Virus record (IMG/VR): IMGVR_UViG_3300011116_001007
Source: a virus
Lineage: Duplodnaviria; Caudoviricetes
Strand: one strand, 5' to 3'
DNA length: 64,000 nt
Below the pieces are notes generated by a model. The model was given only the letters and a program-made list of their open reading frames with translations. It ran no database searches and was not told the origin of the DNA. The position numbers and the translations under genes are program-made. The number at the start of each line of letters is the position of its first letter. The stretch's first letter is position 1. Shown piece after piece: positions 11,314 to 26,239 of this stretch.

Positions 11314-11448
11314 TTAGATCCAGCCCCGGAAATCTTCCATCATAAGCCGTTGAGCACCTTTATGATCGCCGTTGCGTGCCATATTTGCAGCCGTATTGGC
11401 CAGGGCCATTGCACCAAAAAAGTTGTAAATGGATTTTAATATGGTCAT
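11314..11448 (-). CDS. 44-aa hypothetical protein (not in ORF track)
   Basis: MTILKSIYNFFGAMALANTAANMARNGDHKGAQRLMMEDFRGWI; TAATG overlap with upstream gene. Confidence 0.7.
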   Translation of the reverse strand: MTILKSIYNFFGAMALANTAANMARNGDHKGAQRLMMEDFRGWI

Positions 11449-11621
11449 TACCATCCCCTACGCAAATGGTTCAAATCAAATTGACGAGTCAATCGATCCA
11501 CATCGCAGGCAGTTTGTGGTGCATTTCTAACAATGTATTCTTCCAATGCTGAACTGTAGGTTTGTGGCCTACTGAACGTCTGAAACATCTTGTGGAAGTA
11601 TTCAGTCAATTGATTCAACAT
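11448..11621 (-). CDS. 57-aa protein resembling DUF3563 (not in ORF track)
   Basis: ALEEYIVRNAPQTACDVDRLTRQFD; AGGAG RBS. Confidence 0.55.
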   Translation of the reverse strand: MLNQLTEYFHKMFQTFSRPQTYSSALEEYIVRNAPQTACDVDRLTRQFDLNHLRRGW

Positions 11622-11625
11622 GGCT

Positions 11626-11913
11626 TTAGGCTCCTTTGGTTTTGCCTGTGCCTGTGGCTTGATAGGCTTTCATGATGCCTTCGCCAAACTTCACATAGTC
11701 AAATTTGGCAGTATCGCGCATCAATTTGACGCTTTCGGTCATGATGCTGTTGCTTGCATCTGTGGTGGCCTTAAAGGCCTTTTTGGTGTATTCTGCTTGA
11801 GTGTCAATGAATTGGTTCATGGACTCTGCAATGTGCTCGTTGGTGACAAAAGTCTTAACGAATTGTTTTTTACCATTTTGAATGGTGTCGATCATGGTGT
11901 CTGCTGTAAACAT
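11626..11913 (-). CDS. Phasin-like amphipathic helical protein
   Basis: Start re-placed at 11913 (AAGGAG RBS); Ala/Lys/Thr-rich helices, no Cys or Trp, basic tail; PhaR-like box upstream. Confidence 0.55.
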   Translation of the reverse strand: MFTADTMIDTIQNGKKQFVKTFVTNEHIAESMNQFIDTQAEYTKKAFKATTDASNSIMTESVKLMRDTAKFDYVKFGEGIMKAYQATGTGKTKGA

Positions 11914-11969
11914 GGTGTTCTCCTTAATAAGCAAGCAAATTATAGGACCCGCCCCGTGCAGCATCCTAT
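11914..11969 (-). promoter_or_regulatory. ROSE-like structured 5' leader
   Basis: AUAGGAUGC...GGGUCCUAU hairpin followed by CUUGCUUAUUAAGGAG (UUGCU pairs with the SD, bulged G). Confidence 0.65.
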
Positions 11970-11974
11970 GTGCT

Positions 11975-12006
11975 ATTATATATGATAAAATGCTGCGACC
12001 GCACAT
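11975..12006 (-). promoter_or_regulatory. Promoter (-10 TATAAT) with PhaR-like operator over the -35
   Basis: ATTATA at 11975-11980; ATGCTGCG-AC-CGCACAT at 11990-12006 (CTGC-N4-GCAS). Confidence 0.5.
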
Positions 12007-12099
12007 TTTCCGGCGAAATACAGAAGAAAAAATAAATAAAAGTGCAGTTCGCGGATCTGGACAATCCCAACTGCTCTATGATTATTAAGGAATCACAGC

Positions 12100-12543
12100 A
12101 TGCCTATTTATAAATCTACTCATACTTTTCCCTATGTGTATCTTTGTCAGGAAAAAGATTCACCGTATTTCTATATCGGATATCGATACGCAAATCGAGT
12201 GCCGTCATCTGAAGATTTTGGAAAACATTATTTTACATCAAACAAGTATGTTAAAGAAAACTTTGACAAGTTTGATCATACCATAGTAGCAGAGTTTTTT
12301 GACAAAAAAGATGCATACACATTTGAATCTGAACTGATCAAAGAATTGAACTCAAAATATCTGCTGAATGCCCAGCGGATAGGGCGGCTCACGGGCACAT
12401 CATACAAACCCAAGATAACAGAAGAAGTTATTTCAAAAACTTGTGCTTTGCCCGAATGCAACAAGATTTTCACCAACTGGCGGTCAAAATGCTGCTGTAT
12501 CTCGCATAGTAAAAAATACGCAGGTATGCGACGTCACCAATAA
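12100..12543 (+). CDS. Free-standing GIY-YIG (Seg-like) endonuclease
   Basis: PYVY...FYIGYR, AYTFESELI...LLN; C-terminal Cys cluster. Confidence 0.75.
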   Translation: MPIYKSTHTFPYVYLCQEKDSPYFYIGYRYANRVPSSEDFGKHYFTSNKYVKENFDKFDHTIVAEFFDKKDAYTFESELIKELNSKYLLNAQRIGRLTGTSYKPKITEEVISKTCALPECNKIFTNWRSKCCCISHSKKYAGMRRHQ

Positions 12544-12563
12544 ATAAATCATAGGAGAACATT

Positions 12564-12863
12564 ATGTTGAAACGAATAGTTGAATTTTTCACTGGTAAAA
12601 AAGAACCAGTTGCTGCACCTGAAGCTGCACCATACAAAGTAGAAGCGCCAGCGCCTGCCAAGATTCCTGAGCCTGCTGTTGCACCATTGGCAACAGATCA
12701 AGCCGCGGTGGTCAGTGCCGCAGAAGGATCTGCTGTGACTTTGACTCCTGTTGCAAAGGCACCGCCAGCAAAGAAGCCAGCTGCAAAGAAAACCGCTGTG
12801 CCAAAGAAGCCAGCAGCAGCCAAAGCAACTGCCAAGCCTAGAACCAAAAAGACCCCACAGTAA
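12564..12863 (+). CDS. Ala/Lys/Pro-rich histone-H1-like protein
   Basis: PAKKPAAKKTAVPKKPAAAK repeats; TAAATA and AGGAG upstream. Confidence 0.7.
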   Translation: MLKRIVEFFTGKKEPVAAPEAAPYKVEAPAPAKIPEPAVAPLATDQAAVVSAAEGSAVTLTPVAKAPPAKKPAAKKTAVPKKPAAAKATAKPRTKKTPQ

Positions 12864-12883
12864 ACTACTAGGTTTACACCCCC

Positions 12884-12913
12884 AAAACCCCTCTTAAATA
12901 ATAGAGGGGTTTT
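12884..12913. terminator. Terminator-like hairpin with TAAATA in the loop
   Basis: AAAACCCCTCT-TAAATAAT-AGAGGGGTTTT. Confidence 0.75.
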
Positions 12914-12938
12914 ATTTTGACTAGAAAAGGGGGAAACC

Positions 12939-13466
12939 ATGGCTGAATCTCGCTCAGAAAGAGAAGCACATATAAAAGACAAAGCAGGCTGGGTGATCAC
13001 AGTTGTGGCAGCATTGCTAGCAGTGAACACCTACGTTGCCAATGGCATCAGCAGTGGCATATTGACCAATACCATTCGAGCCAACGACACTTGGAACTTT
13101 TATCAGGCCAAGAGCATCAAACAGGCCATAGCAGAAAATGCCAGAGATGATGCTGCTGGCCGTCGAGACACCAAAAAAGTTCAAGAACTGACTGAAAAAA
13201 TTGATCGCTTGATCAGCGACCCTGCAACAAATGAAGGCAAACGAGAACTCATGGTTCGAGCTCGAGCCTTGGAAGCCGACCGCGATGAAGCCAAATTGCA
13301 CAGCCCGTGGCTGACTTTTGCCGGGTCAGCACTGCAACTCAGCATAGTGTTGTTGAGTGCCAGTATCCTGGCAGTGAGCATGGGCATGTTTTACTCCAGC
13401 ATAGGTGTGGGCTTGATAGGGGCCATTCTGATGAGCCAAGGAATTTGGCTATGGTTTCCATTGTAA
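12939..13466 (+). CDS. DUF4337-like membrane protein
   Basis: TM helix, ANDTWNFYQAKSIK, two C-terminal TM helices. Confidence 0.75.
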   Translation: MAESRSEREAHIKDKAGWVITVVAALLAVNTYVANGISSGILTNTIRANDTWNFYQAKSIKQAIAENARDDAAGRRDTKKVQELTEKIDRLISDPATNEGKRELMVRARALEADRDEAKLHSPWLTFAGSALQLSIVLLSASILAVSMGMFYSSIGVGLIGAILMSQGIWLWFPL

Positions 13467-13669
13467 AATGGTCAGTGATAGCATGGTTGTCAATCATGGC
13501 AGTGTCCAGTGAAGAAAATCTCAGCCAATCTAAAAAAGATCAGGCGTGGGTGTGTGTGCGTTGGCAATGGGTCGGCGCCCCAGTTGACGGTCGAGTCACT
13601 TGCGTGGCCTGGGCCAAGAAAGATTGTTCCAATAGATTGTACCCGGAAATATGTAAAAGGGGCGGGTAA
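13451..13669 (+). CDS. Small exported Cys/Trp-rich protein
   Basis: Start placed at MVSIVKWSV; CVRWQW...CVAW...C...C. Confidence 0.55.
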   Translation: MVSIVKWSVIAWLSIMAVSSEENLSQSKKDQAWVCVRWQWVGAPVDGRVTCVAWAKKDCSNRLYPEICKRGG

Positions 13670-13672
13670 CCA

Positions 13673-14287
13673 ATGGATCCAATTACCATAGGTCTTGCAT
13701 TCACTGCCGCACAATCAGCAATAGGTCACATCAAACAGGCCATAGCACTGGGCAAGGATGTCAACAGCATCATTGGCCAAGTGGGGCACTTTTTTGAAGC
13801 AGCAGACCAAGTTCACGTGGCCAGCATCAAGGCCAAACACGGTGCCATGGGCAAAACTGATGCTCAAATTGGTCGCCAAGCTCTTGAGTTTGCCATGCGT
13901 AGCAATCAATTGCGAGAAGATGAAAGAGCTCTCAAAGACATGATATATTGGCAGCTGGGCAAGCCTGAAATATGGCAAGAGATGATTGCTGAACGTACTA
14001 GATTGTTGAAAGAGAAACGTGCAGGCGAAGAAGCAATTGCCAAGGCCAAACAAGCACACAAAGAAAAGATGGCCAAGATGCTCATGCTGACCATGTATAT
14101 TATAGCAGGAGCTGCTATTGTTTTTTCATTTGTGATGATGGGTGTGCAACTTTACAGCATGGATCAAGAACAAAAAGCATTTGAAGCTGCACAAGCAAAA
14201 AACCTAAGGATTCGTCGTGAACAGCAATGGGCTAGAGAACAAGAACAAAAGAAACAACTAGATGCCGCTGCCAAGAACGGTGCCTAG
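13673..14287 (+). CDS. Membrane-anchored coiled-coil protein
   Basis: MDPITIGLAFTAA N-terminus; TM segment near C-terminus. Confidence 0.75.
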   Translation: MDPITIGLAFTAAQSAIGHIKQAIALGKDVNSIIGQVGHFFEAADQVHVASIKAKHGAMGKTDAQIGRQALEFAMRSNQLREDERALKDMIYWQLGKPEIWQEMIAERTRLLKEKRAGEEAIAKAKQAHKEKMAKMLMLTMYIIAGAAIVFSFVMMGVQLYSMDQEQKAFEAAQAKNLRIRREQQWAREQEQKKQLDAAAKNGA

Positions 14288-14403
14288 TGCCTATGCCTAT
14301 CGTTGGCCCAGTCTTTAAACATCACCCAAAATATCATCACTAGAGGCACACACCCTAGTAAAAATAAAACATCGTTGAATGTGATGACAATATTGAAATA
14401 CAT
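14284..14403 (-). CDS. 39-aa membrane peptide (not in ORF track)
   Basis: MYFNIVITFNDVLFLLGCVPLVMIFWVMFKDW...; TAAATA four nt upstream. Confidence 0.6.
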   Translation of the reverse strand: MYFNIVITFNDVLFLLGCVPLVMIFWVMFKDWANDRHRH

Positions 14404-14407
14404 CAAG

Positions 14408-14459
14408 TATTTATTAACCACTGGGTTTGATGCTGGTGCCAAAAACACCTGGCTAAATA
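14408..14459. promoter_or_regulatory. Back-to-back late-type TAAATA promoters
   Basis: TATTTA at 14408-14413 and TAAATA at 14454-14459, each four nt from an ATG. Confidence 0.65.
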
Positions 14460-14463
14460 CTTA

Positions 14464-15567
14464 ATGTATCCACTTTATGAAAATATAAATTTAAACACGT
14501 ATGAAACTTTGTTCGGTTACTATACGTTAGGATTTATACAATACCATCGGCCGGACTTGTTTATCATTGATATTAGATTAAAAAATCGATCGTGGGATAT
14601 TCCCCACGACATGGCCAATTACGATTGGCTAGAATCAAAAATACAACTGGGCTTGAGTCAAGGTCGGTCCGTGGTAATCATACCAGAAGACGAACATGTG
14701 GTGTTCGCAGTCAATACCCAACTGACTACTATATTAAACAACTATGTAAACAGTCCTGTGTATTGGATCACCATGCTGGATAGTCTGGCACAACAAGTCT
14801 ATAGAGAACGCCATCAATTCCGTATCAAAATATTAGAGTTGCCATGGTTGCTGTTGAATGAGTGCTTGACTTATTATCTAGTGGCCAACACAGCAACAAA
14901 CTTTATGCCAAATGATCAGAACTATAATTTTTTTTGTTTGATTGGAAATACTGCCAGTCGTCACAAAGGCAACTTAGCTCGAGAATTGCATAACCGACGT
15001 CTGAGCAGTCACGGATTGATCACAGTGAATAAAAATTGTTCCATTGACGCAGATCTACTGGAATTTTGCCAGGTCAATCAGGAAGTAGTATACGATCCTT
15101 CTATAAATCCAGACTATCCAATGATAGCAAGACAAACCAACGTCAATGGAACTTGGGTGTCGCAAAATGTCAAAAATTACCTATACATAGATCAACAGTA
15201 TCATCACATACCGTTGGCGATAAATCCTGAAACCATAACCAGTGCATTCAAAAGCACAGAAAAAAGCATTTGGCCCATACTGCTAGGCAAACTATTTTTA
15301 ATTTACGGCAGACCTGGATCAATGGCCTGGATACAACGATTTTACGACATTGATATAACATCATTTGCAAACATAGCATATGATGCTATTCCCGGATTTG
15401 ATTCTAACAAAATTCGATTGAATAGAATGATTGATGACAACCGAGACTTGATTCAAAATGCCAAAGATATACAAACACAATTACAACCCCAATTAGAGTG
15501 TGCTAGGTGGACATTGGGCCGAAACTTGTACAAATTTTTTGTTTCGCAATTGGAGTTTATCCCTTGA
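14464..15567 (+). CDS. Glycosyltransferase-like protein ('TEK' motif family)
   Basis: INPET...STEKSIWPILLGKLFLIYG...YD; paralogous to 21464-22744. Confidence 0.5.
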   Translation: MYPLYENINLNTYETLFGYYTLGFIQYHRPDLFIIDIRLKNRSWDIPHDMANYDWLESKIQLGLSQGRSVVIIPEDEHVVFAVNTQLTTILNNYVNSPVYWITMLDSLAQQVYRERHQFRIKILELPWLLLNECLTYYLVANTATNFMPNDQNYNFFCLIGNTASRHKGNLARELHNRRLSSHGLITVNKNCSIDADLLEFCQVNQEVVYDPSINPDYPMIARQTNVNGTWVSQNVKNYLYIDQQYHHIPLAINPETITSAFKSTEKSIWPILLGKLFLIYGRPGSMAWIQRFYDIDITSFANIAYDAIPGFDSNKIRLNRMIDDNRDLIQNAKDIQTQLQPQLECARWTLGRNLYKFFVSQLEFIP

Positions 15568-16280
15568 AAACCTTAACCACTGCTGGGTGTAGTTTTACGT
15601 TGGATAACTATCAAAAAACCTGGGCCAATTATCTGTCAGAAAGTCTCAACTGTGATCTGGTAAATCTTGGTGCCAGAGGTGCTGGAATTGATTTTATTAC
15701 CAAAAGAGTAATGTATCACTGTGCCCACAATGACACAGATTTAATTGTTGTGATGTTGCCCAGTGTGGATAGATTTGATTGGTATTTGGATCAACACCAT
15801 CCATTAAAAACCAATGGCCTATCCATAGCCAGTTGGCAAAACGGGAAGAATCCTTCGTTGATGGCACTGGACGGTCAGCCAAATTATACTGAAGGATATT
15901 CTTTATCCGGCGGCGAAATACGTGGGCACAAACGTCATTGGTTCAAATATTATTACAGTGAAACTTCTGCATTGTTGAATTATTGGACTGCCGTTTATAA
16001 TTTAGAAAATTTTTTCAAAATTAAAAATATACCATACTATTTTACCACTGCGTATGATAAAGACAATCTAGTGGAACAGTCCTACAATCAAACTCAAAAC
16101 AGCAGCAATTTCAATTGGATTTTTGATTGTATCAATTGGGAGAAATTTATATTTTATCAATCCAATCGGGGATTTCTAAATTTTACAAAAGATCAAAAAT
16201 TTAACATTGTAAACAATCATCCAGTGACCGATGCACATAAGTCTTGGGTTGACAATGTTTTACTGACAAAATTTAATTGA
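15564..16280 (+). CDS. SGNH/GDSL-like hydrolase or acyltransferase
   Basis: TTG start with GGAG; AGCSFT, NLGARGAG, C-terminal HPVTDAH. Confidence 0.65.
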   Translation: MKTLTTAGCSFTLDNYQKTWANYLSESLNCDLVNLGARGAGIDFITKRVMYHCAHNDTDLIVVMLPSVDRFDWYLDQHHPLKTNGLSIASWQNGKNPSLMALDGQPNYTEGYSLSGGEIRGHKRHWFKYYYSETSALLNYWTAVYNLENFFKIKNIPYYFTTAYDKDNLVEQSYNQTQNSSNFNWIFDCINWEKFIFYQSNRGFLNFTKDQKFNIVNNHPVTDAHKSWVDNVLLTKFN

Positions 16281-16284
16281 ATGA

Positions 16285-16575
16285 TCACTGCAAAATCATA
16301 CGCATTAACCCGATGGAGTCGATTGTGACCAACAGGCCGCAGTTGGCCAGCATGCCAAAAGATCTACGGCTATAAGAAGCCCACCCATACATACAACACT
16401 GGCAAATAAAAACAGGATAGATAAGAACCAAAGGCGGTGTTGGAACAGTGAGCGCCATAGTAACACTACATCCGATACTAAGCGCCCAAGCCGTAGTTTC
16501 AATGATAAAACGTAAAGGGTATGCTCGATAGTCATCTTTGATCCAGGTTGTGATGTTGATTAAAACATTGCTCAT
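16285..16575 (-). CDS. Small integral membrane protein
   Basis: Three hydrophobic helices. Confidence 0.75.
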   Translation of the reverse strand: MSNVLINITTWIKDDYRAYPLRFIIETTAWALSIGCSVTMALTVPTPPLVLIYPVFICQCCMYGWASYSRRSFGMLANCGLLVTIDSIGLMRMILQ

Positions 16576-17741
16576 GTTCTGTCAGAAAAATAATTTTGCT
16601 TTTCTCCAACTCGATCAAGATCGGTGGTCATGCAATGCACTCCGCCGTCATAAAAATATATTTGTGGAATATCTATCACGTGAACGGTGATTCCATACTT
16701 CTCTAATTTAGAATTAAGTTGATCGTTTTTTACCAGAGTAATAACATTTTTTGTGTCAACCACCAGCATATTTACATCAAACACACTTTCCCCAGATGAT
16801 CCTACCCAAGAATCAAAGCTATTTTCTACTAGGTCTATCAACTCATCGTCGGTCTCGTGGCCTGGGTACCACCATCGATTTCGTATTCTCTTAGAGAGTT
16901 CTTTATGTGCTGCCATTGGGTTATTATTACGAACATATATAACTTCCCAGCCGGGAAAATACCTATCATAATCAATTACCAAGTCAGGATCGTCATGTGC
17001 AACAATTAGTCCTGGACAAATAACACAAAATATGCCATCTGTGTGACCGACTGAATCAATCATATGATTTCTGTAATCTGCAAATTCAGTATCATAGATG
17101 GTCTGACGCTTAGCCAAGTCACGATCTGCTGCCATTGTTCCAAAATACAGATCTTGTCCAATTCTATTTAATAGTCCGCCGTCGGACATTGCCCAGTCAA
17201 CAGTTTGATTTCCCTGCTGCTTGACAAGGTCTAATATATCACCATAACAATTGTTAAAATGAGTCAGCCAACCCATTTCTCCTGCCAAGTTAAAATGATC
17301 GTATGCTTCGTTTATTTGTGCAGTAGGAGCATGTGCTAAAAAATCATAAACACTATTGTATCTATCCCACGAAGGATCTGCTATGTTAGCGTAATATTTT
17401 TTCCAGTACTGATCGCTCCAATTCTGATAATAAAATTTATTGCCTATCATCATCATGGTATTACGAGGTTGTAATGGTGGACAAGGGCCAATTTGTTTTT
17501 TCTCATCAAAAGGATACTGAAAATTTACATTTGGTCTTAGTACCTGCACCCCGAGATCTTGCAATTTTTTTACTAATAATTTTAGTCCACTCTCAGTATC
17601 AATGGACATACATTCAAGCAAGCTTCTTAATCGTGGCTGTTTGATCCAAGAAAAATATTCAGGAGGAACTGTCTGCCCCACAATACAGGTTTGTAATGGA
17701 TCCCAATTCTGATGTATGCTAAACATTATTTTTTTGTTCAA
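16572..17741 (-). CDS. Amidinotransferase-family protein (divergent paralog)
   Basis: NWDPL..CIVG, QPRN, GHTDG, FDVNMLV, GGVHCMT. Confidence 0.85.
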   Translation of the reverse strand: MNKKIMFSIHQNWDPLQTCIVGQTVPPEYFSWIKQPRLRSLLECMSIDTESGLKLLVKKLQDLGVQVLRPNVNFQYPFDEKKQIGPCPPLQPRNTMMMIGNKFYYQNWSDQYWKKYYANIADPSWDRYNSVYDFLAHAPTAQINEAYDHFNLAGEMGWLTHFNNCYGDILDLVKQQGNQTVDWAMSDGGLLNRIGQDLYFGTMAADRDLAKRQTIYDTEFADYRNHMIDSVGHTDGIFCVICPGLIVAHDDPDLVIDYDRYFPGWEVIYVRNNNPMAAHKELSKRIRNRWWYPGHETDDELIDLVENSFDSWVGSSGESVFDVNMLVVDTKNVITLVKNDQLNSKLEKYGITVHVIDIPQIYFYDGGVHCMTTDLDRVGEKQNYFSDRT

Positions 17742-18744
17742 ACAATTGCTGACTGGCTAGATTCTTACCTTTGGCTTCAACTTGAATATCCCAATCGTCA
17801 CTAAAGGTCAATGCCCAGTCGTTCACAGCACGATTCCACATGAAGTCACTGTGTGCGCGAAGCTTTTGCTTGCGATATCCGCGATCAAGTAGTTGGTCGA
17901 GGTCAGGTCTGACAAGGGGATCGTGATCCACCAAAACGTCTTCACGACTAACACTGTAGTGAAGAACAGGACGAGTACCACGCCAAGACTCCAACACGCG
18001 ACGCGCCCTAGGGTCCACGGGTGTGATGTATTCACCGGTGCGGATCCAGTGGTGGTGGATGTCCAGCGTAAGAGCACAATGCTCAGCCACAGCCAAAGTA
18101 ACGTCGATACCATTTGTCATCTCATCATTCTCGATGGCAATTAAGTTTCTAGCTTCGGGAGTAAGTCTGCCCAAAGTACGTAGAAATTTAGCGGGGCCAC
18201 CTTTACCGCTTAAATGTACATTTATCTTGAAACCGTGATCATGCCAATTTTTTCCATAACCCATCCAACGAGCCATGTCCACATGATATTCAAATTCTAG
18301 TATGCTGCGTTCTACAATTTCGTCTGCTTCCGATGCCAGCACACAAAACTGTCCAGGATGAAAGCTCAGTCGCACACCCAGTCTGCGGGCAGTTTCACCA
18401 ACAGGGGCAAAGATACGAGCACAGTGATTTTGTATTTCTTGACGCTGCCACCAGTTGATCCATGACGGTTCAGTGTAGCCTTGCAGCATTTCACTGCCCA
18501 GTCGTACCATTCTGCGACCTTCAGGCAGCGTGGCCACACGTTCAATCAGTCTGACTGCTGCGGCAGCATTGTGATTCATTATGTCCCATTGACGCTGTTC
18601 TGCCTCGGCTGCATGCTCGCGGAGCCAGCGCATGGTGGTTGATCGGCCGTTTAGATCACGGTCCACAGCATTGACTTTCATGCCGCCACATTCGGACGGA
18701 TCATTGAGCCATTTGCAACAAAAACCAATTTGGGGTGTAGTCAT
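17719..18744 (-). CDS. uvsE: UV-damage endonuclease
   Basis: RLSFHPGQF, IENDE, LDIHHH, HYSVSR, KLRAHSD, VEAKGKNLA. Confidence 0.93.
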   Translation of the reverse strand: MTTPQIGFCCKWLNDPSECGGMKVNAVDRDLNGRSTTMRWLREHAAEAEQRQWDIMNHNAAAAVRLIERVATLPEGRRMVRLGSEMLQGYTEPSWINWWQRQEIQNHCARIFAPVGETARRLGVRLSFHPGQFCVLASEADEIVERSILEFEYHVDMARWMGYGKNWHDHGFKINVHLSGKGGPAKFLRTLGRLTPEARNLIAIENDEMTNGIDVTLAVAEHCALTLDIHHHWIRTGEYITPVDPRARRVLESWRGTRPVLHYSVSREDVLVDHDPLVRPDLDQLLDRGYRKQKLRAHSDFMWNRAVNDWALTFSDDWDIQVEAKGKNLASQQLFEQKNNV

Positions 18745-18750
18745 GCGTTA

Positions 18751-18779
18751 ATTATACGACACTTTAAGTATTGTGTCAA
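18751..18779 (-). promoter_or_regulatory. Consensus sigma70 promoter for uvsE
   Basis: TTGACA-17nt-TATAAT. Confidence 0.85.
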
Positions 18780-18805
18780 TCACATGTTGCGCCAAACCCA
18801 CACAG

Positions 18806-19717
18806 TTAAGTTCTTACCAAATCCAGCGTCACACAATGAAAGCCGCCGCCCAAAGTTCGGCTGTGGCGCAACTGCAATGGAATTACGGTAAAATTGTAGC
18901 TTTTTAATGTTTTGATCAATTCGGTTTGCGCTTGATCCACAATCACTGTGGCGGGATTGACCACCAACATGTTCATACCTATCCATTTTGAAGCATATGG
19001 ATATTGATAAAAGTCCTGTGCAACCACATCTGACACCCAAATTTTATGCCATCCATCAAACACTTGGGGCACATGGTCAAACCCTACCCTTGATGCATTG
19101 ATCATGACCAGGCCTTCTCTCAAGGGCATTATGGTGCTGTCAATATGCACACCTGAATAAAAATTGCACAGTTCTATTTTTACATCAGGAAATTGGTCAC
19201 ACAGCCAATTGTAAGCTGCGCGATTGCCCGACGGCGATTCCAAAAATAGCATGTGATCATTGAGTCGTAGCACATTGGCAGCATCCATGGTCATGCCTTC
19301 GTTCCTGGGCATAAACCGGTAGTGATCTGCACTGTCAACAATTTCATGATAACATTGCAATTCCATATCTCTGCAGGGATACATCATTGCAGGATCAACT
19401 ATGGTTGAACCATACACAAGCAGCCGATCACGTGGACAATAGTTGGAAAAACCATCATGCAATTGAAAGTTCAGCGGATCAGGACGCACTACTTCCACAC
19501 CCAGCTCAGTCAATGTTGAAGCCAGCTTGTCCAGGTCTTCATTGGTTTCATCAATGATTGTTTGTGGCACAGGCCCACTTGGAACTGGAGTCGCCGTCCA
19601 GGTGGTCTTTTTGCTTTCCTGGCTGAACACAGGATCATTAACTGGCCAATTGGCATTGGTGGCGGATCCAACTATTATTTTGCGTAATTGGCTCCACTCG
19701 TTAACACTTGATATCAT
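18806..19717 (-). CDS. Amidinotransferase (AGAT/StrB1-like)
   Basis: NEWSQLRKIIVG, CPRD, DAAN, VHID, IGMNML, LGGGFHCVTLDL. Confidence 0.92.
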   Translation of the reverse strand: MISSVNEWSQLRKIIVGSATNANWPVNDPVFSQESKKTTWTATPVPSGPVPQTIIDETNEDLDKLASTLTELGVEVVRPDPLNFQLHDGFSNYCPRDRLLVYGSTIVDPAMMYPCRDMELQCYHEIVDSADHYRFMPRNEGMTMDAANVLRLNDHMLFLESPSGNRAAYNWLCDQFPDVKIELCNFYSGVHIDSTIMPLREGLVMINASRVGFDHVPQVFDGWHKIWVSDVVAQDFYQYPYASKWIGMNMLVVNPATVIVDQAQTELIKTLKSYNFTVIPLQLRHSRTLGGGFHCVTLDLVRT

Positions 19718-20232
19718 ACATGCCCTGTAATTTGTAAGGTGTACCTGGGCTGAACACCCAAGTTGGCTGCCAGATGTGGAGTATCATAATGCCATTCTAC
19801 CACATCTCCTGCCAGCCACTCAGTAAATGGCCGGCCATCAAATTCAGCATAGTGTCCCGACTTCCAGTCTTCCATGTACACTATGGCTCGTCGTATTGTG
19901 GTTTCGCGGCCTTGCAAATCAAACAACTGTACATATCTTTTGTACAAGTCCTGATGTGTAGGAAGTATAGTGCCTGGCCGCATGCGGTAGTAACTGGTGC
20001 CAATGTCTTTCCATCCCATCTCAGTGTAAATTTCTAAGAATTTTTTATTGAAACTGGGTTGCGGTTGCCGCATGTCGCACATGTCGCCTGTGAATCGATT
20101 GGCAAACCCCAGGTCAAGCCAATATTGCAAGTTAGCTAGATCATTGAATTCTTCATTCAAATAATTCAGCTTTTTAAATTCATCATTCCAGAACACTGGA
20201 AGATGATATTTAAGCAGGTCTTGTGTTGCCAT
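19714..20232 (-). CDS. 2OG-Fe(II) oxygenase (Asp/Asn beta-hydroxylase-like)
   Basis: PGTILPTHQD ... TPHLAAN ... RYTLQITG. Confidence 0.8.
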   Translation of the reverse strand: MATQDLLKYHLPVFWNDEFKKLNYLNEEFNDLANLQYWLDLGFANRFTGDMCDMRQPQPSFNKKFLEIYTEMGWKDIGTSYYRMRPGTILPTHQDLYKRYVQLFDLQGRETTIRRAIVYMEDWKSGHYAEFDGRPFTEWLAGDVVEWHYDTPHLAANLGVQPRYTLQITGHV

Positions 20233-21463
20233 AATGAATCACAGTGACACCGTCGGCGGCCTTATTCAGTTTGCGCCAAGGATCCACAATAACGCTACCC
20301 CCAGGGATTGCACAATATGGCTGTGTGTCCAGTTGATCGCCGGTGTATTCATATGTGATCTTGCGATTGTGTGCCCACAGCACCACATGAGGCCCGTGCA
20401 ATTCTGCCACAACGTCAGCAGGGTCATCTGCCAAGGGGTCAAGATAAACAACTGAATGTCCCAGTTCTTTGATATAATGGCCTACCAAGGTGGAGTATGA
20501 TCCAATGCAATAAGGAACATCGGGCTTGTAGGCTTTGCCGTGTATGGCAATAGGCAAGTCTTCGCCTGTGATCCACCCGCTTGCTTGGTCCACCAAGAAC
20601 TGGGCTAGATTCTTTGCTTGAATTTCTCTAGCATGCATCACAGTATCAAACAAGTCGTAACCAATGTCATACTCTTTGGCCAGCCAACGCAAGGCAATGT
20701 TGTCTCGTGGATGACATGCACCTGCATCGCCCATGCCTGCTGTCATGTATTTGGGACCCATGATTCTCATGGTGCTACGTGCCAATGCATCTGTGACCAC
20801 ATCAACGTTGATATGTCCTATACGCAATGCAAAATCTTGAACCATATTGACCAGGCCTACTTTGGCACTGATAAATGTGTTGTAGAAAATCTTCATTGCT
20901 TCGCATTCGTCCCAGGTGCCAATTTCGTAACGTGGATCGTTTTGCATGATGGTTTTGTACAGGTCAATCAGCTCGCCAGCCAGTGCGTTAGGGTTGCCGT
21001 CATCGGTACCAATCATGACCATTTCAGGATTGACCATATCCCATTTGACCGAACCCATGGCAATCAAGTAAGGGTTGTACAAAAACTGATGCTGTGGATC
21101 CAGCAGTGGGAAAAACTTACGTCGGGTAGTGCCCGGTAACACTGTGCTGATCAGCACAATTTTTTTAGAACTTCTAGCATACTTGTTGACTTTTTGTATG
21201 GCATCAATCACAGCTTCGTGCCCAAAGTCTCTGGGTTCCATGTGGCTTGACGGCACAGACCCATCGTAGCCTTCAGCATGCGGTGTTGGCACAGCAATAA
21301 AAATCCATTCGCTCTCATTCACCAACTCTTCAATATCACAAACTTTTACCGAGTCACTGGTTCGTGGGTAAATATCGTAGCCTCTAACTTCATGCTTCTC
21401 TGCCATGACTTCGGCACAATCTAGTCCCAGTTTGCCAATGCCAATAAATCCAATTTTTTTCAT
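20210..21463 (-). CDS. ugd: UDP-glucose/GDP-mannose 6-dehydrogenase family
   Basis: GFIGIGKLG Rossmann motif, IAVPTP, KIFYNTF, GDAGACHPRD (catalytic Cys), GKAYKP. Confidence 0.9.
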   Translation of the reverse strand: MKKIGFIGIGKLGLDCAEVMAEKHEVRGYDIYPRTSDSVKVCDIEELVNESEWIFIAVPTPHAEGYDGSVPSSHMEPRDFGHEAVIDAIQKVNKYARSSKKIVLISTVLPGTTRRKFFPLLDPQHQFLYNPYLIAMGSVKWDMVNPEMVMIGTDDGNPNALAGELIDLYKTIMQNDPRYEIGTWDECEAMKIFYNTFISAKVGLVNMVQDFALRIGHINVDVVTDALARSTMRIMGPKYMTAGMGDAGACHPRDNIALRWLAKEYDIGYDLFDTVMHAREIQAKNLAQFLVDQASGWITGEDLPIAIHGKAYKPDVPYCIGSYSTLVGHYIKELGHSVVYLDPLADDPADVVAELHGPHVVLWAHNRKITYEYTGDQLDTQPYCAIPGGSVIVDPWRKLNKAADGVTVIHYGNTRPA

Positions 21464-22744
21464 ATGAGTGTTCCTTTAGATAGATTATATAATTTTTTGC
21501 ATGATGTTGTCAACCATGACATAACAATTTATCGCTTTTGGCCTCATGGTTCAAAAAAACTTGAGCATCTGAAACCTCTAGTAGAAAATAAGCATTGGTT
21601 TCTGCACATGACCAGTCCCACAGTAATTTTTCACGACCAAGAACCATTGAATTTTACTTACTGGACCACAGAAGACTTTGTTCAACACTGGAAAAATCAT
21701 GTGATCAATTATGAATTAAATCCTCTTTTGCATTTGAATACTGAACAAGCCAATTACCAAACGTCGTTGCATCTCAGAGGATTAATTGGTAAGAATTTGT
21801 ACGACTATGTTTTGCTTGTGCATTCGGAAAAAAATAGCAAAGCAATGGATACTTACTTTCAACATGGATTTTTGCCTGTGTATTACTGGGCACATGCCAT
21901 GATTGCCGCCGATTGGTTTAGATATGCTGTTCATGATCCTGTTCTGCAATACAATACTGACACGTTCACACAAGATTTTTTAATATACAATCGTGCCTGG
22001 TCGGGCACCAGAGAATACCGATTGTATTTTTTAGATCAATTGGTTCGGGCAGGGTTGACAAAACATTGCCGCACCAGTTTTGCTCCTGAAGATTCAGGAG
22101 TTCATTACAGTCAACATGCATTTGTTAACCCACAGTTGGCCATCAACTCCACTGAACTAGAAACAGTGTTGCCATTGAATACACACCATTCAGATGCCAG
22201 TGCTGATTATAACAATCAAGATTATGCACAAACAGGTATGGAAATTGTGTTGGAAACACTGTTTGATGATGATCGATGGCATCTCACAGAAAAAGCCCTG
22301 CGACCAATTGCTTGCGGCAAACCCTTTATGTTGGTTGCCACAGCTGGCAGTTTGAAATATCTTCGTAGTTACGGTTTTGAAACATTTGACGATTTTATTG
22401 ACGAGTCGTATGATCTTGAAACAGATCCTGTGGCTAGATTAACTGCTGTGATTCGAGAGATGGCTAGAATAAGCGCTCTCAGTTCCGCTGACAAAATTGT
22501 GCTATGGCATCGACTGCACCTGATTGCTGCCAGAAACAAACAGAGATTTTTTTCAGCTGAATGGCAAACCGGTATAGTGCAAGAATACCTTGACAATATG
22601 AATCAAGCCCTGACCACAGTCAATCAACACTGTACCGGAAAGCACTGGGAACAATTTCAAAATATAAATCGTGGCAGATCGCCGGATGAGATTGAGCAGA
22701 TATCATGCTATTTAAAGTCTAGACAAAATTCCATCCCAATCTGA
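21464..22744 (+). CDS. Glycosyltransferase-like protein ('TEK' motif family)
   Basis: IVLETL...LTEKALRPIACGKPFMLV...LRSYGFETF...DESYD. Confidence 0.55.
   Translation: MSVPLDRLYNFLHDVVNHDITIYRFWPHGSKKLEHLKPLVENKHWFLHMTSPTVIFHDQEPLNFTYWTTEDFVQHWKNHVINYELNPLLHLNTEQANYQTSLHLRGLIGKNLYDYVLLVHSEKNSKAMDTYFQHGFLPVYYWAHAMIAADWFRYAVHDPVLQYNTDTFTQDFLIYNRAWSGTREYRLYFLDQLVRAGLTKHCRTSFAPEDSGVHYSQHAFVNPQLAINSTELETVLPLNTHHSDASADYNNQDYAQTGMEIVLETLFDDDRWHLTEKALRPIACGKPFMLVATAGSLKYLRSYGFETFDDFIDESYDLETDPVARLTAVIREMARISALSSADKIVLWHRLHLIAARNKQRFFSAEWQTGIVQEYLDNMNQALTTVNQHCTGKHWEQFQNINRGRSPDEIEQISCYLKSRQNSIPI
21484..21513 (-). promoter_or_regulatory. Sigma70-type promoter for ugd inside the divergent gene
   Basis: TTGACA-18nt-TATAAT; AAGGA RBS at about 21473-21477. 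Confidence 0.65.
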
Positions 22745-23062
22745 AGACGGTTCATTTTCTTTAAATGCCATCACACGTTGCAGTAGATCTGTGTAAAATG
22801 TGTCTAGTTCTCCTCCCCACTTGCCCATGAGGCCTTGAATGGCCTGTTCACAATAGTTCCATTGCCGATCTCGGTAATATTGTATGAGATCTGCATGTAT
22901 CTTCTTGTGTGCATCTAACAGTGGAAATTCATTCAGTCCAATTTTTTCTACCACACACCAGGTGGGCATGATATCACCATTGGGCATGCGAAATGTGTCC
23001 AATTCCAAACAAGTGAAATTGCCAACAATGTTGTTGATAGAGTCTCCAAAAATAATGTTCAT
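22712..23062 (-). CDS. Hypothetical protein; C-terminus resembles the helical tail of class III cyclases
   Basis: YYRDRQWNYC...FY..LLQR...PSSDWDG. Confidence 0.55.
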   Translation of the reverse strand: MNIIFGDSINNIVGNFTCLELDTFRMPNGDIMPTWCVVEKIGLNEFPLLDAHKKIHADLIQYYRDRQWNYCEQAIQGLMGKWGGELDTFYTDLLQRVMAFKENEPSSDWDGILSRL

Positions 23063-23086
23063 TGTATTTCCTTTTAAATATGTATC

Positions 23087-23875
23087 ATGACATTTGTATT
23101 TGATTTAATTTCTGACCTACACATTGATTCCTGGGGAGAATTTTCCTGGGAATCTCAAGCCACCAGCCCTGTATGCATCGTAGCCGGCGATATTGGCCGA
23201 AATAGACCTGATGTGTTCAAAGCCTTGCATCACCTGGGACAATGTTACCAAGCGGTGTTTTATATTGACGGCAATGACGAACATGCAGGTCGCTTGGACA
23301 ATGTTGGCAAAAGCTATCTTGACCTGGCTCGAAAAATTGACAAGATTCCAAACGTGGTTTACCTCCAAGACAACATGGTAGTGGCCGACGGAGTGGCTAT
23401 CTTGGGCACAAATGGCTGGTGCGCTTTTGATTTTGATCTGGTACAAGATCCTGCCGAAGTAGAACGTTGGTGCCAAGAAGAATACAGCATCACTGAAGAT
23501 ATGACTCAAAAACTAGTTAAAATGGCCGGTACAGATGCTGCATACATGATGAATTCAGTCAAGCGACTGCAGACACATAGAGACGTTAAAAAAATTATCA
23601 TGGTTACCCATGTTGTTCCTGATCCTGCACTGATAGCACATGACATTGATCTAGTTGATACACCGCGATTCAATGTCATGGGCAATCGTTACATGATGCA
23701 GGCTCTTGCCGCTGATACTGAAAACAAAATTGACACATGGTGTTTTGGACACTATCATGGCTCAGTGGATCAAACTCGCAGTGGAATAAGATTTGTCAAC
23801 AACTGTAGAGGCAGGGCAGATGTACCATACGCTCGTCAAGTGTATCACCCCAAGCGCATAGTGATCGAATACTAA
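23087..23875 (+). CDS. Calcineurin-like metallophosphoesterase
   Basis: SDLH, AGD, GNDEH, THVVP, FGHYH. Confidence 0.9.
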   Translation: MTFVFDLISDLHIDSWGEFSWESQATSPVCIVAGDIGRNRPDVFKALHHLGQCYQAVFYIDGNDEHAGRLDNVGKSYLDLARKIDKIPNVVYLQDNMVVADGVAILGTNGWCAFDFDLVQDPAEVERWCQEEYSITEDMTQKLVKMAGTDAAYMMNSVKRLQTHRDVKKIIMVTHVVPDPALIAHDIDLVDTPRFNVMGNRYMMQALAADTENKIDTWCFGHYHGSVDQTRSGIRFVNNCRGRADVPYARQVYHPKRIVIEY

Positions 23876-24183
23876 CCCATGCTTTCAGGTTCTAGCTTGA
23901 TCTGCAGGGGAAATCCTTGTGCTCGAGCCAGCATGGTCACTTCCACACCTTTTTGTTCAGCAATTTCGTATGGCAATACTGCCACACATGCAGCGCCAGT
24001 TTGATGCACATCCACCGTGATCTGTTGGGCAGTTTCCACAGTGTAATTGAAATAATCGATCAGTGATTCAATCACAAATTCCATAGAAGTTTGATTGTCA
24101 TTGAGATAGACCACTTTGAACAATGGCGGTTCTTTGACAGCTTCTGATGGTTTAATTTTGGTACGGGTATCTGATTGCGACAT
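23872..24183 (-). CDS. clpS: Clp protease adaptor
   Basis: PPLFKVVYLND..T.MEFV, VH..G.A, YEIAEQK, GFPL; start re-placed at MSQSDT. Confidence 0.92.
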   Translation of the reverse strand: MSQSDTRTKIKPSEAVKEPPLFKVVYLNDNQTSMEFVIESLIDYFNYTVETAQQITVDVHQTGAACVAVLPYEIAEQKGVEVTMLARAQGFPLQIKLEPESMG

Positions 24184-24240
24184 ATTGGTTCCTATGTAGA
24201 AGTGTGCAACACCATGTTGCACACTCTATGTTTTATTATA

Positions 24241-24693
24241 TTACTTAGCGTAAGAAATAGCGATCGTCTTGGGCTTTTGTGCCTCAGGAATATCACGTAC
24301 AAGGTGAATATTCAAGATTCCCAGTTCCAAGTGTGCATGGTCTATTTCCACATGATCAGCCAGTTTGAATTCACGACGGAAATCTCTTGCGCTAATACCC
24401 TTGTGTAGATAGTTAATGTCAGGTAAATCTTCTTCCTTGATTGTGTTCTTACCCTCAATGACCAGGATGTTTTTGTCCTTGGTCACTGTCAAATTGTCCA
24501 GGGCAAATCCAGCCACAGCCAAACTGATCATGTATTCGTCCTCGTTGATTTGGACCACATTGTATGGAGGGTAATTTGTGCCAGACTGTTGAGAGTGTAT
24601 GCGATTCAGCTCATCAAACATGTGGTCGAAACCAATACCAAATTTGGTGAGTGCTGGAATATCCAGGGCGCGAAGATGTAAAGTTTTTGTCAT
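24241..24693 (-). CDS. hsp20: Small heat-shock protein (IbpA/Hsp20)
   Basis: IGFD, NYPPYNV, LAVAGF, YLHKGISARDFRREFKLAD, GILNI, IPEAQKPKTIAI. Confidence 0.95.
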   Translation of the reverse strand: MTKTLHLRALDIPALTKFGIGFDHMFDELNRIHSQQSGTNYPPYNVVQINEDEYMISLAVAGFALDNLTVTKDKNILVIEGKNTIKEEDLPDINYLHKGISARDFRREFKLADHVEIDHAHLELGILNIHLVRDIPEAQKPKTIAISYAK

Positions 24694-24759
24694 TTGTTTT
24701 CTCCTTTAATAAGCAAGTATGACGTTTTGAGTAGACCCCACCATGGGCATCTACAAGTG
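24694..24759 (-). promoter_or_regulatory. ROSE-like RNA thermometer leader of hsp20
   Basis: GUAGAUGCCC-AUGGU-GGGGUCUAC hairpin followed by CUUGCUUAUUAAAGGAG SD-occluding hairpin. Confidence 0.75.
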
Positions 24760-24790
24760 TATTTATACAGGAAATCTCAATGGTTGTCAA
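24760..24790 (-). promoter_or_regulatory. Dual sigma70/late promoter of hsp20
   Basis: TTGACA-17nt-TATAAA; the -10 is also a full TATAAATA. Confidence 0.8.
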
Positions 24791-25028
24791 GACTCATTGG
24801 CTCAATTATTCTATAATCCACAGTTTTTACAGTGGGATTCCAGGTCAGCGCAAAAAAACTATACATATCATCAGGCTCCAAAACCACACGCTTGACATAT
24901 TTTACTGTTTTGGTTTGATAAGTTATGTTGTATTTTTTGCTCCAGGTGTCTAGCTCTGCGCCCAATACCATCCAGGCCCAGGTGTACGCTTCTTTGGATT
25001 TTGATGGCAAATCAAAAGCAATGTACAT
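24777..25028 (-). CDS. Hypothetical protein
   Basis: ORF track; abuts clpX. Confidence 0.7.
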   Translation of the reverse strand: MYIAFDLPSKSKEAYTWAWMVLGAELDTWSKKYNITYQTKTVKYVKRVVLEPDDMYSFFALTWNPTVKTVDYRIIEPMSLDNH

Positions 25029-25030
25029 GA

Positions 25031-26239
25031 CTAAAAATTAGCTGCCTTTAGTGCAATAGGAGCCTCAACTTGATCCACATCAATTTCCACAGTTTTTATG
25101 CCTTGTGTGTGATATTGACGCAGATAAAACATGTGAGGTAGCAGCACACGTTCCAGCTCAGAATGCAGGCCACGAGCGCCTGTTTTGTTTTTCATGGTGC
25201 GTTCAGCAATGAGATCCAAGCTGGCATCAGTAAACTTCAACTCCACACTGTCACAATTGAACAACCAACTGTATTGCGAAATGTAGCTGTGTTTGACCTG
25301 TGTCAATATCATCACCAGATCTGCTTTGCTGAGTTCTTCCAGCGACACCCAGCTTTGGAATCGACCCACAAACTCTGGAATCATGCCATAACGGATTAGA
25401 TCTTCTGGAGTAGTTTTGGCCAAGTGCAAAGAACTGTCACGATCCATATTGGCACCAAATCCAATGGTGGTACCTTTGGTACGATTTTTTACTATGTTGT
25501 CCAGGCCCACAAATGCGCCGCCGCCTATAAACAGGATATTCCTAGTATCAATTTCCACAGTTTCACCCGATGGGTGCTTGCGGCCACCTTGCGGAGTGAT
25601 CCTACATTTGGTACCTTCTACCAGCTTGAGCAAGGCCTGTTGTACGCCTTCTCCACTGACATCTCTAGTGATACTGGCACTTTCACTTTTGCGACTGATC
25701 TTGTCTATTTCGTCAATGAACACAATACCGCGCTGTGTTTTTTCCACGTCATTGCCGGCAGCAGCAAACAGTCTACCAATCATGCTTTCAACATCATCAC
25801 CCACATATCCGGCTTCGGTAAGGCTGGTAGCATCAGCAATCACAAATGGCACATCTAAGTAACGTGCCACAGTTCGAGCCAGCAGTGTTTTGCCCGAACC
25901 AGTTGGTCCCAACATCAAGATATTGGTTTTTTCAATTTCTACATTGACGTCTTGATTGTTGATACGCTTGTAATGATTGACCACAGCCACACTCAACACT
26001 TGTTTAGCTTGTTCTTGTCCAATCACGTATCTGTCAAGGTGCCGCTTGATCTCCATTGGGTCCAATGAATCGCCTGTGTCAGCAGGTGTGACAATCAGAT
26101 CATCTTTCAACAAGGTCTCGCACAATTCCACACATTCGTTGCAGATGGCCACGGCTTCGCCAACTATGAGTTTGGTCACAATGTCCTTGTGTTTGCCGCA
26201 AAAACTGCAAGTAGTGTTACTGGTTTCGTTATTTTTCAT
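25031..26239 (-). CDS. clpX: ATP-dependent Clp protease ATPase subunit
   Basis: CSFC/CNEC Zn domain, [21 protein letters not shown] loop, IGF loop. Confidence 0.96.

Follow-up and report, generated by a model that had tools for sequence, protein, structure and literature searches.

Why should two unrelated genes of one phage carry the same structured leader in front of their start codons? The question is raised by IMG/VR record IMGVR_UViG_3300011116_001007, a stretch of 64,000 nucleotides (nt; hereafter the window) from a virus of the Caudoviricetes. Here hsp20, encoding a small heat-shock protein (sHsp), and a gene for a protein of 95 amino acids (aa), some 12 kb apart, are each preceded on the minus strand by a leader with two hairpins, the second of which would sequester the Shine-Dalgarno (SD) sequence. 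One possibility is that these leaders are cis-acting translational thermometers of the ROSE type on both genes, and we judge this reading somewhat likelier to be right than wrong. Alternatively, the leaders may respond chiefly to a protein, may no longer switch at all, or may be features of the DNA rather than of the RNA. The content of the window is that of a phage (it encodes a ligase, NrdAB, a DnaB-like helicase and virion proteins), and its relatives are IMG/VR contigs of 260-353 kb.

Two genes with one leader

The features on which the argument depends are listed below; R2 is a covariance model described in the next section.

24241-24693, minus strand: hsp20, encoding an IbpA-like small heat-shock protein of 150 aa (Pfam HSP20, 2e-14; PHROG 432 Hsp20, 9e-40)
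24694-24755, minus strand: ROSE-like leader of hsp20, the whole of its putative 5' untranslated region (UTR) (R2, 54.7 bits, E 4e-10 over 24691-24755, UTR plus AUG)
24731-24754, minus strand: hairpin I of hsp20, with a 6-bp outer stem ending in U.G, a bulged G at 24748, a 4-bp inner stem and a 3-nt loop (RNAfold; table of 90 leaders; pair counts)
24701-24717, minus strand: candidate hairpin II of hsp20, with the anti-SD CUUGCU at 24712-24717 (bulged G 24714), separated by the 6-nt A/U loop UAUUAA from the SD AGGAG at 24701-24705 (direct reading; motif statistics)
24719-24723, minus strand: candidate clamp GUCAU, complementary to AUGAC at 24689-24693 (start codon plus 2 nt) and enclosing hairpin II (in the minimum-free-energy [MFE] fold)
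24760-24790, minus strand: putative hsp20 promoter, with TTGACA at 24785-24790, a 17-nt spacer and TATAAA at 24762-24767 (direct reading)
11626-11913, minus strand: gene of the 95-aa protein (the "P family"), with three predicted helices and the ATG at 11913 taken as start (translation)
11914-11969, minus strand: ROSE-like leader of the 95-aa gene, the whole of its putative 5' UTR (R2, 61.4 bits, E 1e-11 over 11911-11969, UTR plus AUG)
11942-11969, minus strand: hairpin I of the 95-aa gene, with a 7-bp outer stem ending in U.G, a bulged G at 11962, a 4-bp inner stem and a 5-nt loop (RNAfold; leader table; pair counts)
11920-11935, minus strand: candidate hairpin II of the 95-aa gene, with CUUGCU at 11930-11935, the 5-nt loop UAUUA and AGGAG at 11920-11924 (direct reading)
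11975-12006, minus strand: putative promoter of the 95-aa gene, with TATAAT at 11975-11980 and a near-palindrome, AUGUGCG-GUC-GCAGCAU, at 11990-12006 over the -35 region (direct reading)

Both leaders are about 60 nt long and follow a single order: a -10 element, a spacer of 5-7 nt, hairpin I, a short linker, CUUGCU, an A/U loop, AGGAG, 6-7 nt and the AUG, which lies at 24691-24693 in hsp20 and at 11911-11913 in the 95-aa gene. RNAfold produced hairpin I in both, with the same bulge and architecture; its letters run GUAGAU, bulged G, CCCA, loop UGG, UGGG and GUCUAC in hsp20, and AUAGGAU, bulged G, CUGC, loop ACGGG, GCGG and GUCCUAU in the 95-aa gene. The original prediction, a reading of the window's letters which held that the two genes share a two-hairpin leader, had placed both elements correctly. 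It also had UUGCU pair with the SD and leave a G bulged. This geometry (C-G, U-A, U.G, bulged G, C-G, U-A) can be drawn in both leaders, although it is not the MFE fold of the hsp20 leader at 37°C.

The -10 region of hsp20 also reads TATAAATA (24760-24767), a T4 late-promoter word, and with either reading of the promoter the expected start would fall no more than 1-2 nt from the base of hairpin I. The word occurs three times in the window against 2.1 expected, which is no enrichment. As a separate observation, the orphan Rfam motif freshwater-2 RNA (RF02980) weakly matches 24691-24750 (22 bits against a cut-off of 49.9), mainly via its AAAGGAGAAAACAAAUG end, and may derive from the leaders of related freshwater phages.

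Conservation and covariation of the hairpins

From IMG/VR we retrieved 80 loci with hsp20 and 56 with the 95-aa gene, read their upstream regions and tabulated 90 non-redundant leaders by an anchor search for a pyrimidine (Y), the bulged G and the inner stem. MAFFT misplaced the 3' half of hairpin I, so we used the anchor table and a model-guided alignment instead. A covariance model, R1, was built from six relatives' leaders of the 95-aa gene only and was later refined into R2. R1 recognized the window's own leader of the 95-aa gene (55.6 bits, E 1e-10), the hsp20 leader, and all other leaders of both genes, with nothing more in 350 kb. Given that a model made from the leaders of one gene finds those of the other, the likeness of the two leaders is far beyond chance.

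Hairpin I, with its invariant bulged G, was present in 88 of the 90 leaders. The pair before the bulge was U.G in 56, C-G in 30 and U-A in 2, and the first inner pair was C-G in 85 and U-A in 3. Across the 88-row alignment, 97.6% of the cells expected to pair did so, compared with 78.8% after shuffling (a value of 97.6% was reached in 0 of 500 shuffles) and 42-67% when one side was slid by 1-3 columns. This alignment was fitted to the covariance model, and the anchor table, which is independent of it, shows the same compensations. All 11 pairs of hairpin I had changes on both sides.

The motif of hairpin II was read in 86 leaders. Its anti-SD 5-mer was UUGCU in 63, UCGCU in 22 and CAGCU in one; the bulged G was invariant (86/86), with flanking pairs that would leave it unpaired, AGGAG was kept in 85 at a spacing of 3-8 nt, and the loop consisted of A and U only in 72. 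The five pairs were intact in 99.3% of cells. Two of them are constant throughout and two others change on one side only; the wobble position is U.G in 62 rows and C-G in 21, and a double change from C-G to U-A occurs in two rows whose SD-side G has become A (for example, AGGAA in L099). Covariation among homologous leaders, on which the original prediction had staked its case, is thus strong in hairpin I and almost absent from hairpin II, because the SD cannot vary freely. As far as comparison of sequences can tell, hairpin II is backed by conservation and geometry, not by covariation.

Exactly two copies per genome

R2 gave exactly two strong hits in the window (61.4 and 54.7 bits). The next best, at 34217-34267 (E 0.65), overlaps the 3' end of an upstream open reading frame (ORF) and lies just 5' of an 84-aa ORF; we rejected it as a chance match. 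The claim that no other start site in the window carries the motif was accordingly borne out. In each of four relatives that are 99-100% complete (343-353 kb), R2 likewise had exactly two strong hits, separated by 12-25 kb, of which one lies at hsp20 and the other at the 95-aa gene. Each genome has 2-7 instances of the bare word UYGCUU-N1-9-AGGAG, and a spacer of A and U only is found at the two R2 sites alone; the motif is therefore no general ribosome-binding context, and we rejected that explanation.

The leaders fall into gene-specific lineages. Those of hsp20 have the inner stem CCNA/UNGG and a 3-nt loop, and those of the 95-aa gene have CUGN/NCGG and a 5-nt loop, which points to an old duplication with both copies retained. 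The promoters differ between the two genes and swap among relatives, while the leader stays constant. Two relatives, L095 and L113, have lost the whole leader, not parts of it.

One further site deserves mention. In a complete 353-kb relative, R2 weakly matched a sequence (L147, G003:134850-134908; E 0.046) upstream of a 78-aa gene resembling RNA polymerase omega, where a stem-loop precedes GUUGCUUAACUUGGAG; this could be either a third member that has diverged or a chance match.

Kinship with the ROSE family

The original prediction called the leaders ROSE-like and proposed a comparison with the Rfam models. An Rfam scan of the window at gathering thresholds returned nothing, and there was no hit to RF00435 or RF01832. 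ROSE_3 (RF02523) aligned end to end with both leaders, over positions 1-69 of 69, at 19.5 bits (E 0.036) for hsp20 and 26 bits (E 8e-4) for the 95-aa gene, both below its cut-off of 43; relatives' leaders scored 28-34.8 bits, with a best E of 0.002 (68 kb against 4227 families). These matches all sit exactly upstream of a start codon, and the consensus hairpin I of ROSE_3 (GGAUGCCGAA.UCGGGUCC) and its hairpin II (CUcGCu...aGgAG) are the phage motifs. When run over the four whole relatives, ROSE_3 missed every leader, even with E values up to 1 admitted. Control genomes yield sub-threshold matches near 18 bits by chance, so that ROSE_3 alone is unusable as a detector; in five bacterial genomes and 101 genomes of one gamma-proteobacterial order it gave sub-threshold hits only.

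The closest true bacterial homologues of the phage Hsp20 belong to Bradyrhizobium and other alpha-proteobacteria (about 45% identity), and the genes for them carry canonical ROSE elements of 69-75 bits. Bradyrhizobium ROSE contains the bulged-G hairpin CGGGA(C/U)-G-CC-loop-GG-GUCCCG and, farther on, UUUGCUCUCAGGAGGA; the hairpin also occurs in a Rhodobacteraceae genome. The hsp20 copy lies in the 5' UTR of an sHsp gene, and the leaders have U(U/C)GCU facing the SD, the bulged G and the two hairpins, while their scores stay under the gathering threshold. Since two independent signature motifs are common to them and bacterial ROSE, we file them as a short phage variant of the ROSE family, an assignment made on sequence that leaves them outside ROSE_3 by the Rfam cut-off. 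The kinship claimed at the outset thus holds, through the full-length ROSE_3 alignment, U(U/C)GCU/AGGAG with its bulged G and the hairpin I common with Bradyrhizobium; the Rfam scores, taken by themselves, fall short of it.

The two proteins and their link

The phage Hsp20 matches the NCBIfam IbpA model at 4e-35, under the equivalog cut-off, and, aligned along its full length, shares 44% identity with an IbpA-family protein from an enterobacterium. The Arg of G-I-x-x-R-[ND]-F (R103, in G-I-S-A-R-D-F) and the Tyr of Y-P-P-Y (Y41, in N-Y-P-P-Y) are each invariant in all 16 aligned phage Hsp20s, and both motifs align with those of the enterobacterial protein. Judged by these motifs and the published E. 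coli work (PMC10474464), R103 and Y41 would be the counterparts of R93 and Y34 in E. coli.

The 95-aa protein belongs to a family of more than 2400 homologues at E up to 1e-3, and among the 120 listed no name goes beyond "hypothetical protein." No homologue was found among cultured phages, no Pfam family reached threshold, and the AlphaFold2 model (three helices, mean predicted local distance difference test score 83) had no match in a fold search of the PDB at E up to 0.001. The original prediction took it for a phasin-like granule protein. Phasin_2 (PF09361) scored 15.5 bits against a cut-off of 24.9 (E 0.02), and of 27 relatives no more than 8 gave a match to it with E of 0.1 or better. Clusters labelled Phasin_2, PHB_acc and PhaE are among the protein's language-model neighbours (0.85-0.89), at the level of a lead. 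We did not uphold this identification, and we keep a phasin-like identity as a lead. Of the proposed two-gene regulon joining chaperone and granule proteins, the two-member leader set is conserved across the phage clade, and it is the granule label that is weak.

A different line of evidence connects the two proteins. In another phage lineage (L127-L135, IMG/VR contigs, about 1420-2240), a leader is followed by a gene for a 75-aa paralogue of the 95-aa protein and then by hsp20, whose product there has 167-170 aa. The gap between paralogue and hsp20 is 12-13 nt and contains GAGGAG in all eight readable loci. A single leader serves this operon, with hairpin I reading GAUAC-G-CC-UUCG-GG-GUAUC and followed by ACUCGCUUAAUAGGAG, whereas in the window's lineage the two genes stand apart with one leader each. 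The operon therefore implies a functional link; it is good genomic evidence that the 95-aa family and Hsp20 work together, and the 95-aa protein is likely a chaperone partner. A complex prediction with two copies of Hsp20 and the 95-aa protein scored 0.00, which gives no verdict either way.

The promoter of the 95-aa gene has a feature of its own. At the place of the window's near-palindrome, relatives L081-L126 show TGTTGC-N3-GCAACA, followed 17 nt downstream by an extended -10 (TGTTACAAT or TATAAT), and L095 and L113 keep this palindrome despite having lost the ROSE-like leader. It looks like an operator for a dimeric regulator; the window contains no second copy of the near-palindrome.

A proposed mechanism and its energetics

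According to the thermometer reading, both leaders would be copies of one phage lineage of ROSE-like 5' UTR, acting in cis on translation. Transcription would begin at the base of hairpin I, 7 nt after the -10 element in both genes, and this stable, sequence-specific hairpin, with its Y-R pair (pyrimidine-purine) and invariant bulged G, would sit at the very 5' end of the mRNA. C-U-(U/C)-G-C-U would pair with the SD AGGAG over an A/U-only loop, leaving the G bulged, and in many members a gene-specific upstream segment would pair with the start-codon region. Folded hairpin II would hinder 30S binding and would open on warming, and Hsp20 and the 95-aa protein would be made together regardless of their differing promoters and of the host heat-shock sigma factor. 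Because hairpin II has only 5 bp and a bulge, its set-point would be low, about 15-25°C for the CUUGCU form, and a low set-point would plausibly suit lake hosts.

The predicted free energy of hairpin II in hsp20 (CUUGCU) is -1.8 kcal/mol at 5°C, -0.6 at 15°C, +0.6 at 25°C and +2.0 at 37°C, and that of the 95-aa gene is -0.9 at 5°C and +2.3 at 37°C. CUCGCU forms reach -1.4 to -1.6 kcal/mol at 37°C, and the ROSE_3 consensus -6.2. In silico, CUUGCU hairpins pass from negative to positive energy near 14-20°C, and CUCGCU hairpins do so near 50°C. Segments 5' of the motif complement the start region of their own gene (GUCAU/AUGAC in hsp20, GUAAAC/GUUUAC in most leaders of the 95-aa gene), with duplex energies of -5.5 and -3.5 kcal/mol when matched and -0.8 to -3.2 when cross-matched. 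Such a clamp may add stability to hairpin II; GUAAAC is missing from the window's own leader of the 95-aa gene, and the independent clamp events are few.

Leader-bearing sequences are present in RNA libraries. Contigs from four lake-water metatranscriptome runs, which were chosen with the hsp20 region, covered hsp20 (24504-24745) and the region of the 95-aa gene (11403-11966) and hardly any of the 12 kb between, at a 90% likeness setting that favours conserved genes; contigs of this kind give no levels or starts. One of the contigs stops at 24745 and another at 11966, close to where hairpin I has its 5' edge, which is a weak hint that the 5' end lies there.

Weighing the explanations

Several results count against a thermometer. 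By nearest-neighbour energies, hairpin II is marginal at 37°C (+2.0 and +2.3 kcal/mol, against -6.2 for ROSE_3), its covariation is minimal, and no Rfam ROSE model reaches its gathering score (ROSE_3 stays at or below 34.8 bits against 43). Opening the region from SD to AUG at 37°C would cost 4.4 kcal/mol in hsp20 and 3.2 in the 95-aa gene, mid-rank among 76 other genes of the window (mean 4.45, standard deviation 2.6); for Bradyrhizobium ROSE the cost is 11.5-11.8, compared with 2-5 for phage leaders. Folding z-scores of the leaders against shuffles (-0.4 to -1.0) are not significant. The phage leaders lack the upper G-C/A-U pairs of Pseudomonas ibpA thermometers and ROSE_3, and in P. putida repression was abolished once the upper G-C pair was opened (PMC3669281). 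In addition, the core of hairpin I is strictly conserved, which a pure thermometer would not need and which hints at a trans-acting factor.

That last point raises the potential that the leader is chiefly protein-responsive: the phage Hsp20 would bind the shared leader, plausibly at the invariant bulged-G core of hairpin I, and repress both mRNAs until aggregates titrate it away. Several observations lean in this direction, namely an IbpA-like phage Hsp20 with R103 and the Tyr of YPPY kept in 16 of 16, an SD hairpin predicted to be too weak for repression alone, a hairpin I core whose sequence persists from Bradyrhizobium ROSE to phages when folding or mRNA stability would call for no more than some stable hairpin, and a leader carried by exactly hsp20 and its genomically linked partner gene. 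However, the binding of Hsp20 to these leaders is an analogy with E. coli IbpA, and the Arg is a weak discriminator, being conserved in many sHsps. Thermosensing has its hallmark in the U(U/C)GCU/SD geometry, and it can coexist with feedback. We consider a chiefly protein-responsive leader rather unlikely. A more elaborate variant would make the phage pair an aggregation-sensing regulon, in which Hsp20 recognizes the bulged-G core of hairpin I, a part of ROSE elements that has long lacked an explanation, and feeds back on itself and on the 95-aa protein, the latter being the founder of a large family of small helical sHsp partners (>2400), possibly phasin-like holdases, with temperature acting on top through an SD hairpin tuned to cold lake water; we put this forward as a speculation that is unlikely to hold in full.

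It is also conceivable that the leader no longer switches, with hairpin I guarding the 5' end of the mRNA and CUUGCUU...AGGAG surviving as a strong, constitutive ribosome-binding site, a relic of a captured bacterial ibpA. The ordinary accessibility of the ribosome site in silico fits such a relic, as do the position of hairpin I at the presumed 5' end, the fact that 5'-terminal stem-loops stabilize mRNAs and, as a weak hint, the metatranscriptome contig ends noted above. A relic would not be expected, however, to keep U(U/C)GCU in 85 of 86 leaders together with the bulged G and the A/U-only loop while linker and loop sequences drift, or to persist on a second, unrelated gene in every complete genome; and L095 and L113, in which control was lost, dropped the whole leader. 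We regard this explanation as improbable. Least credible, to the point that we give it very little weight, is a DNA-level feature, either a mobile cassette of the promoter-early stem-loop (PeSL) type, which T4-type phages carry in many dispersed copies between early genes, or a promoter word, TGCTT, akin to a MotA box. Promoters directly before stem-loops do exist here, as in the 11-bp hairpin after TATAAT between hsp20 and clpS, and TGCTTA resembles the MotA box of T4. The cassette was rejected nonetheless, with two copies only per 345-kb genome and upstream promoters that differ while the transcribed part is conserved. The promoter word fell too, since transcription driven by TGCTTA would start downstream of the SD. 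Compensatory changes, G.U included, preserve RNA pairing, and the same two motifs are found in bacterial ROSE elements.

Neighbouring genes

Around hsp20 lies a proteostasis cluster (window 23872-26275, minus strand), and other genes flank or separate the two leader-bearing loci.

25031-26275, minus strand: ClpX-like AAA+ protein with a zinc finger, upstream of hsp20
24777-25028, minus strand: 83-aa ORF, between the ClpX-like gene and hsp20
24181-24183, minus strand: likely ATG of a ClpS adaptor homologue, downstream of hsp20 (Pfam ClpS, 4e-24)
12100-12543, plus strand: GIY-YIG endonuclease-like gene, divergent from the promoter of the 95-aa gene (Pfam, 5e-5)

A perfect 11-bp hairpin with a 3-nt loop stands at 24201-24225, 16 nt past the hsp20 stop codon, with TATAAT before it and no U-run after it; it may be a clpS promoter with a 5' stem-loop, or a processing site, rather than a classical terminator. 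TATAAATA recurs on the minus strand at 12105-12112, beside the GIY-YIG-like gene. Between the two leader-bearing genes lie homologues of a UvdE-type ultraviolet endonuclease and of a UDP-glucose/GDP-mannose dehydrogenase (17719-18744 and 20210-21463).

Occurrence beyond the clade

DNA searches of cultured phages with both leader regions gave no match. At the protein level, Hsp20 had 509 tblastn matches in cultured phages, mostly in T4-like cyanophages, and R2 placed a leader directly upstream of hsp20 in four of five cultured genomes sampled, one copy each. S-TIM61 had no R2 leader; the four with a leader were:

Methylophilales phage Melnitz-3: hsp20 leader, R2 59.8 bits, ROSE_3 34.1 bits
Sinorhizobium jumbo phage Phosso: hsp20 leader, R2 34.4 bits
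Cyanophage S-RIM12: hsp20 leader, R2 24.7 bits
Cyanophage S-PRM1: hsp20 leader, R2 23.7 bits

Contigs assigned to metagenome-assembled genomes (L152-L157 and L184, labelled Haliscomenobacter, Sediminibacterium, Pirellulales, Neomarinimicrobiota [335 kb], Halobacteroidaceae, Coraliomargarita and Rhodobacteraceae) encode Hsp20s that are 49-71% identical, with a phage-type leader in every case where upstream sequence is available. These contigs are probably phage DNA that was binned with bacteria.

Significance and comparison with known systems

ROSE elements are textbook bacterial RNA thermometers, and we found no report of them in viruses; a search of full-text literature returned no paper describing ROSE-type elements in phages or viruses. 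A large clade of freshwater jumbo phages has kept the element described here, which also precedes hsp20 in cultured T4-like phages of cyanobacteria and methylotrophs and in a rhizobial jumbo phage. Very abundant viruses may thus set their own chaperone synthesis post-transcriptionally, without host sigma-32. Because of the second copy, a protein family without a name can be placed beside Hsp20 in function. The sensing hairpin is shortened to an extreme, which makes it a natural case on which to test low-temperature set-points. Hairpin I is dispensable for thermosensing in Pseudomonas, yet it has a sequence-specific core (Y-R pair, bulged G, C-G) here; given that this core is kept from Bradyrhizobium to phages, a specific interaction is favoured over mere stability.

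About three phage RNA thermometers of any kind were counted in a 2024 paper (PMC11182007), which lists lambda cIII, SPbeta blyA and a sigma-70 thermometer of gut Caudoviricetes. Like the leaders studied here, they are cis-acting structured phage leaders for which temperature sensing has been proposed or shown, but they are unrelated in sequence and design, none is of the ROSE type, and none sits on a chaperone gene. A precedent for ROSE-type elements off heat-shock genes comes from ROSE-like and ROSE-G elements on bacterial ABC transporter genes (Mills et al. 2025, PMC12857270); those are bacterial, use another sub-motif and have no sHsp copy paired with them in the same genome. With canonical ROSE (RF00435), the phage leaders have in common the bulged-G hairpin CGGGAYGCC-loop-GGGUCCCG and the UUGCU/AGGAGG hairpin, whereas canonical ROSE has three to four hairpins over about 95 nt and a long SD hairpin in place of the phages' two hairpins.

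In E. coli, IbpA binds the structured leaders of ibpA, ibpB and rpoH and represses their translation (Cheng, Miwa and Taguchi 2023, PMC10474464; Miwa and Taguchi 2023, PMC10410725), and its R93 is irreplaceable for 5' UTR binding and not for chaperoning (PMC10474464). The phage system resembles it in having an IbpA-type sHsp with the Arg and an aromatic residue and in having several mRNAs with a related structured leader. It differs in that its putative second target encodes neither an sHsp nor a sigma factor.

The closest parallel in design is with the Pseudomonas ibpA thermometers and ROSE_3. Those short two-hairpin elements are proven thermometers in which hairpin II alone melts (Krajewski et al. 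2013, PMC3669281), and an mRNA-stabilizing role for their hairpin I has been raised as an idea (PMC3669281). In both systems the UTR measures some 60 nt and has at its 5' end a stable, G/C-rich hairpin I whose core is GAUGCC...GGGUC; U(U/C)GCU lies opposite AGGAG with a bulged G, and an IbpA-type gene follows downstream. In contrast, hairpin II of the phage leaders has only 5 bp and a bulge under an A/U-only loop and is predicted to be about 8 kcal/mol less stable, and the phage elements are borne by phages, follow phage promoters and include a second copy on a gene that does not encode an sHsp.

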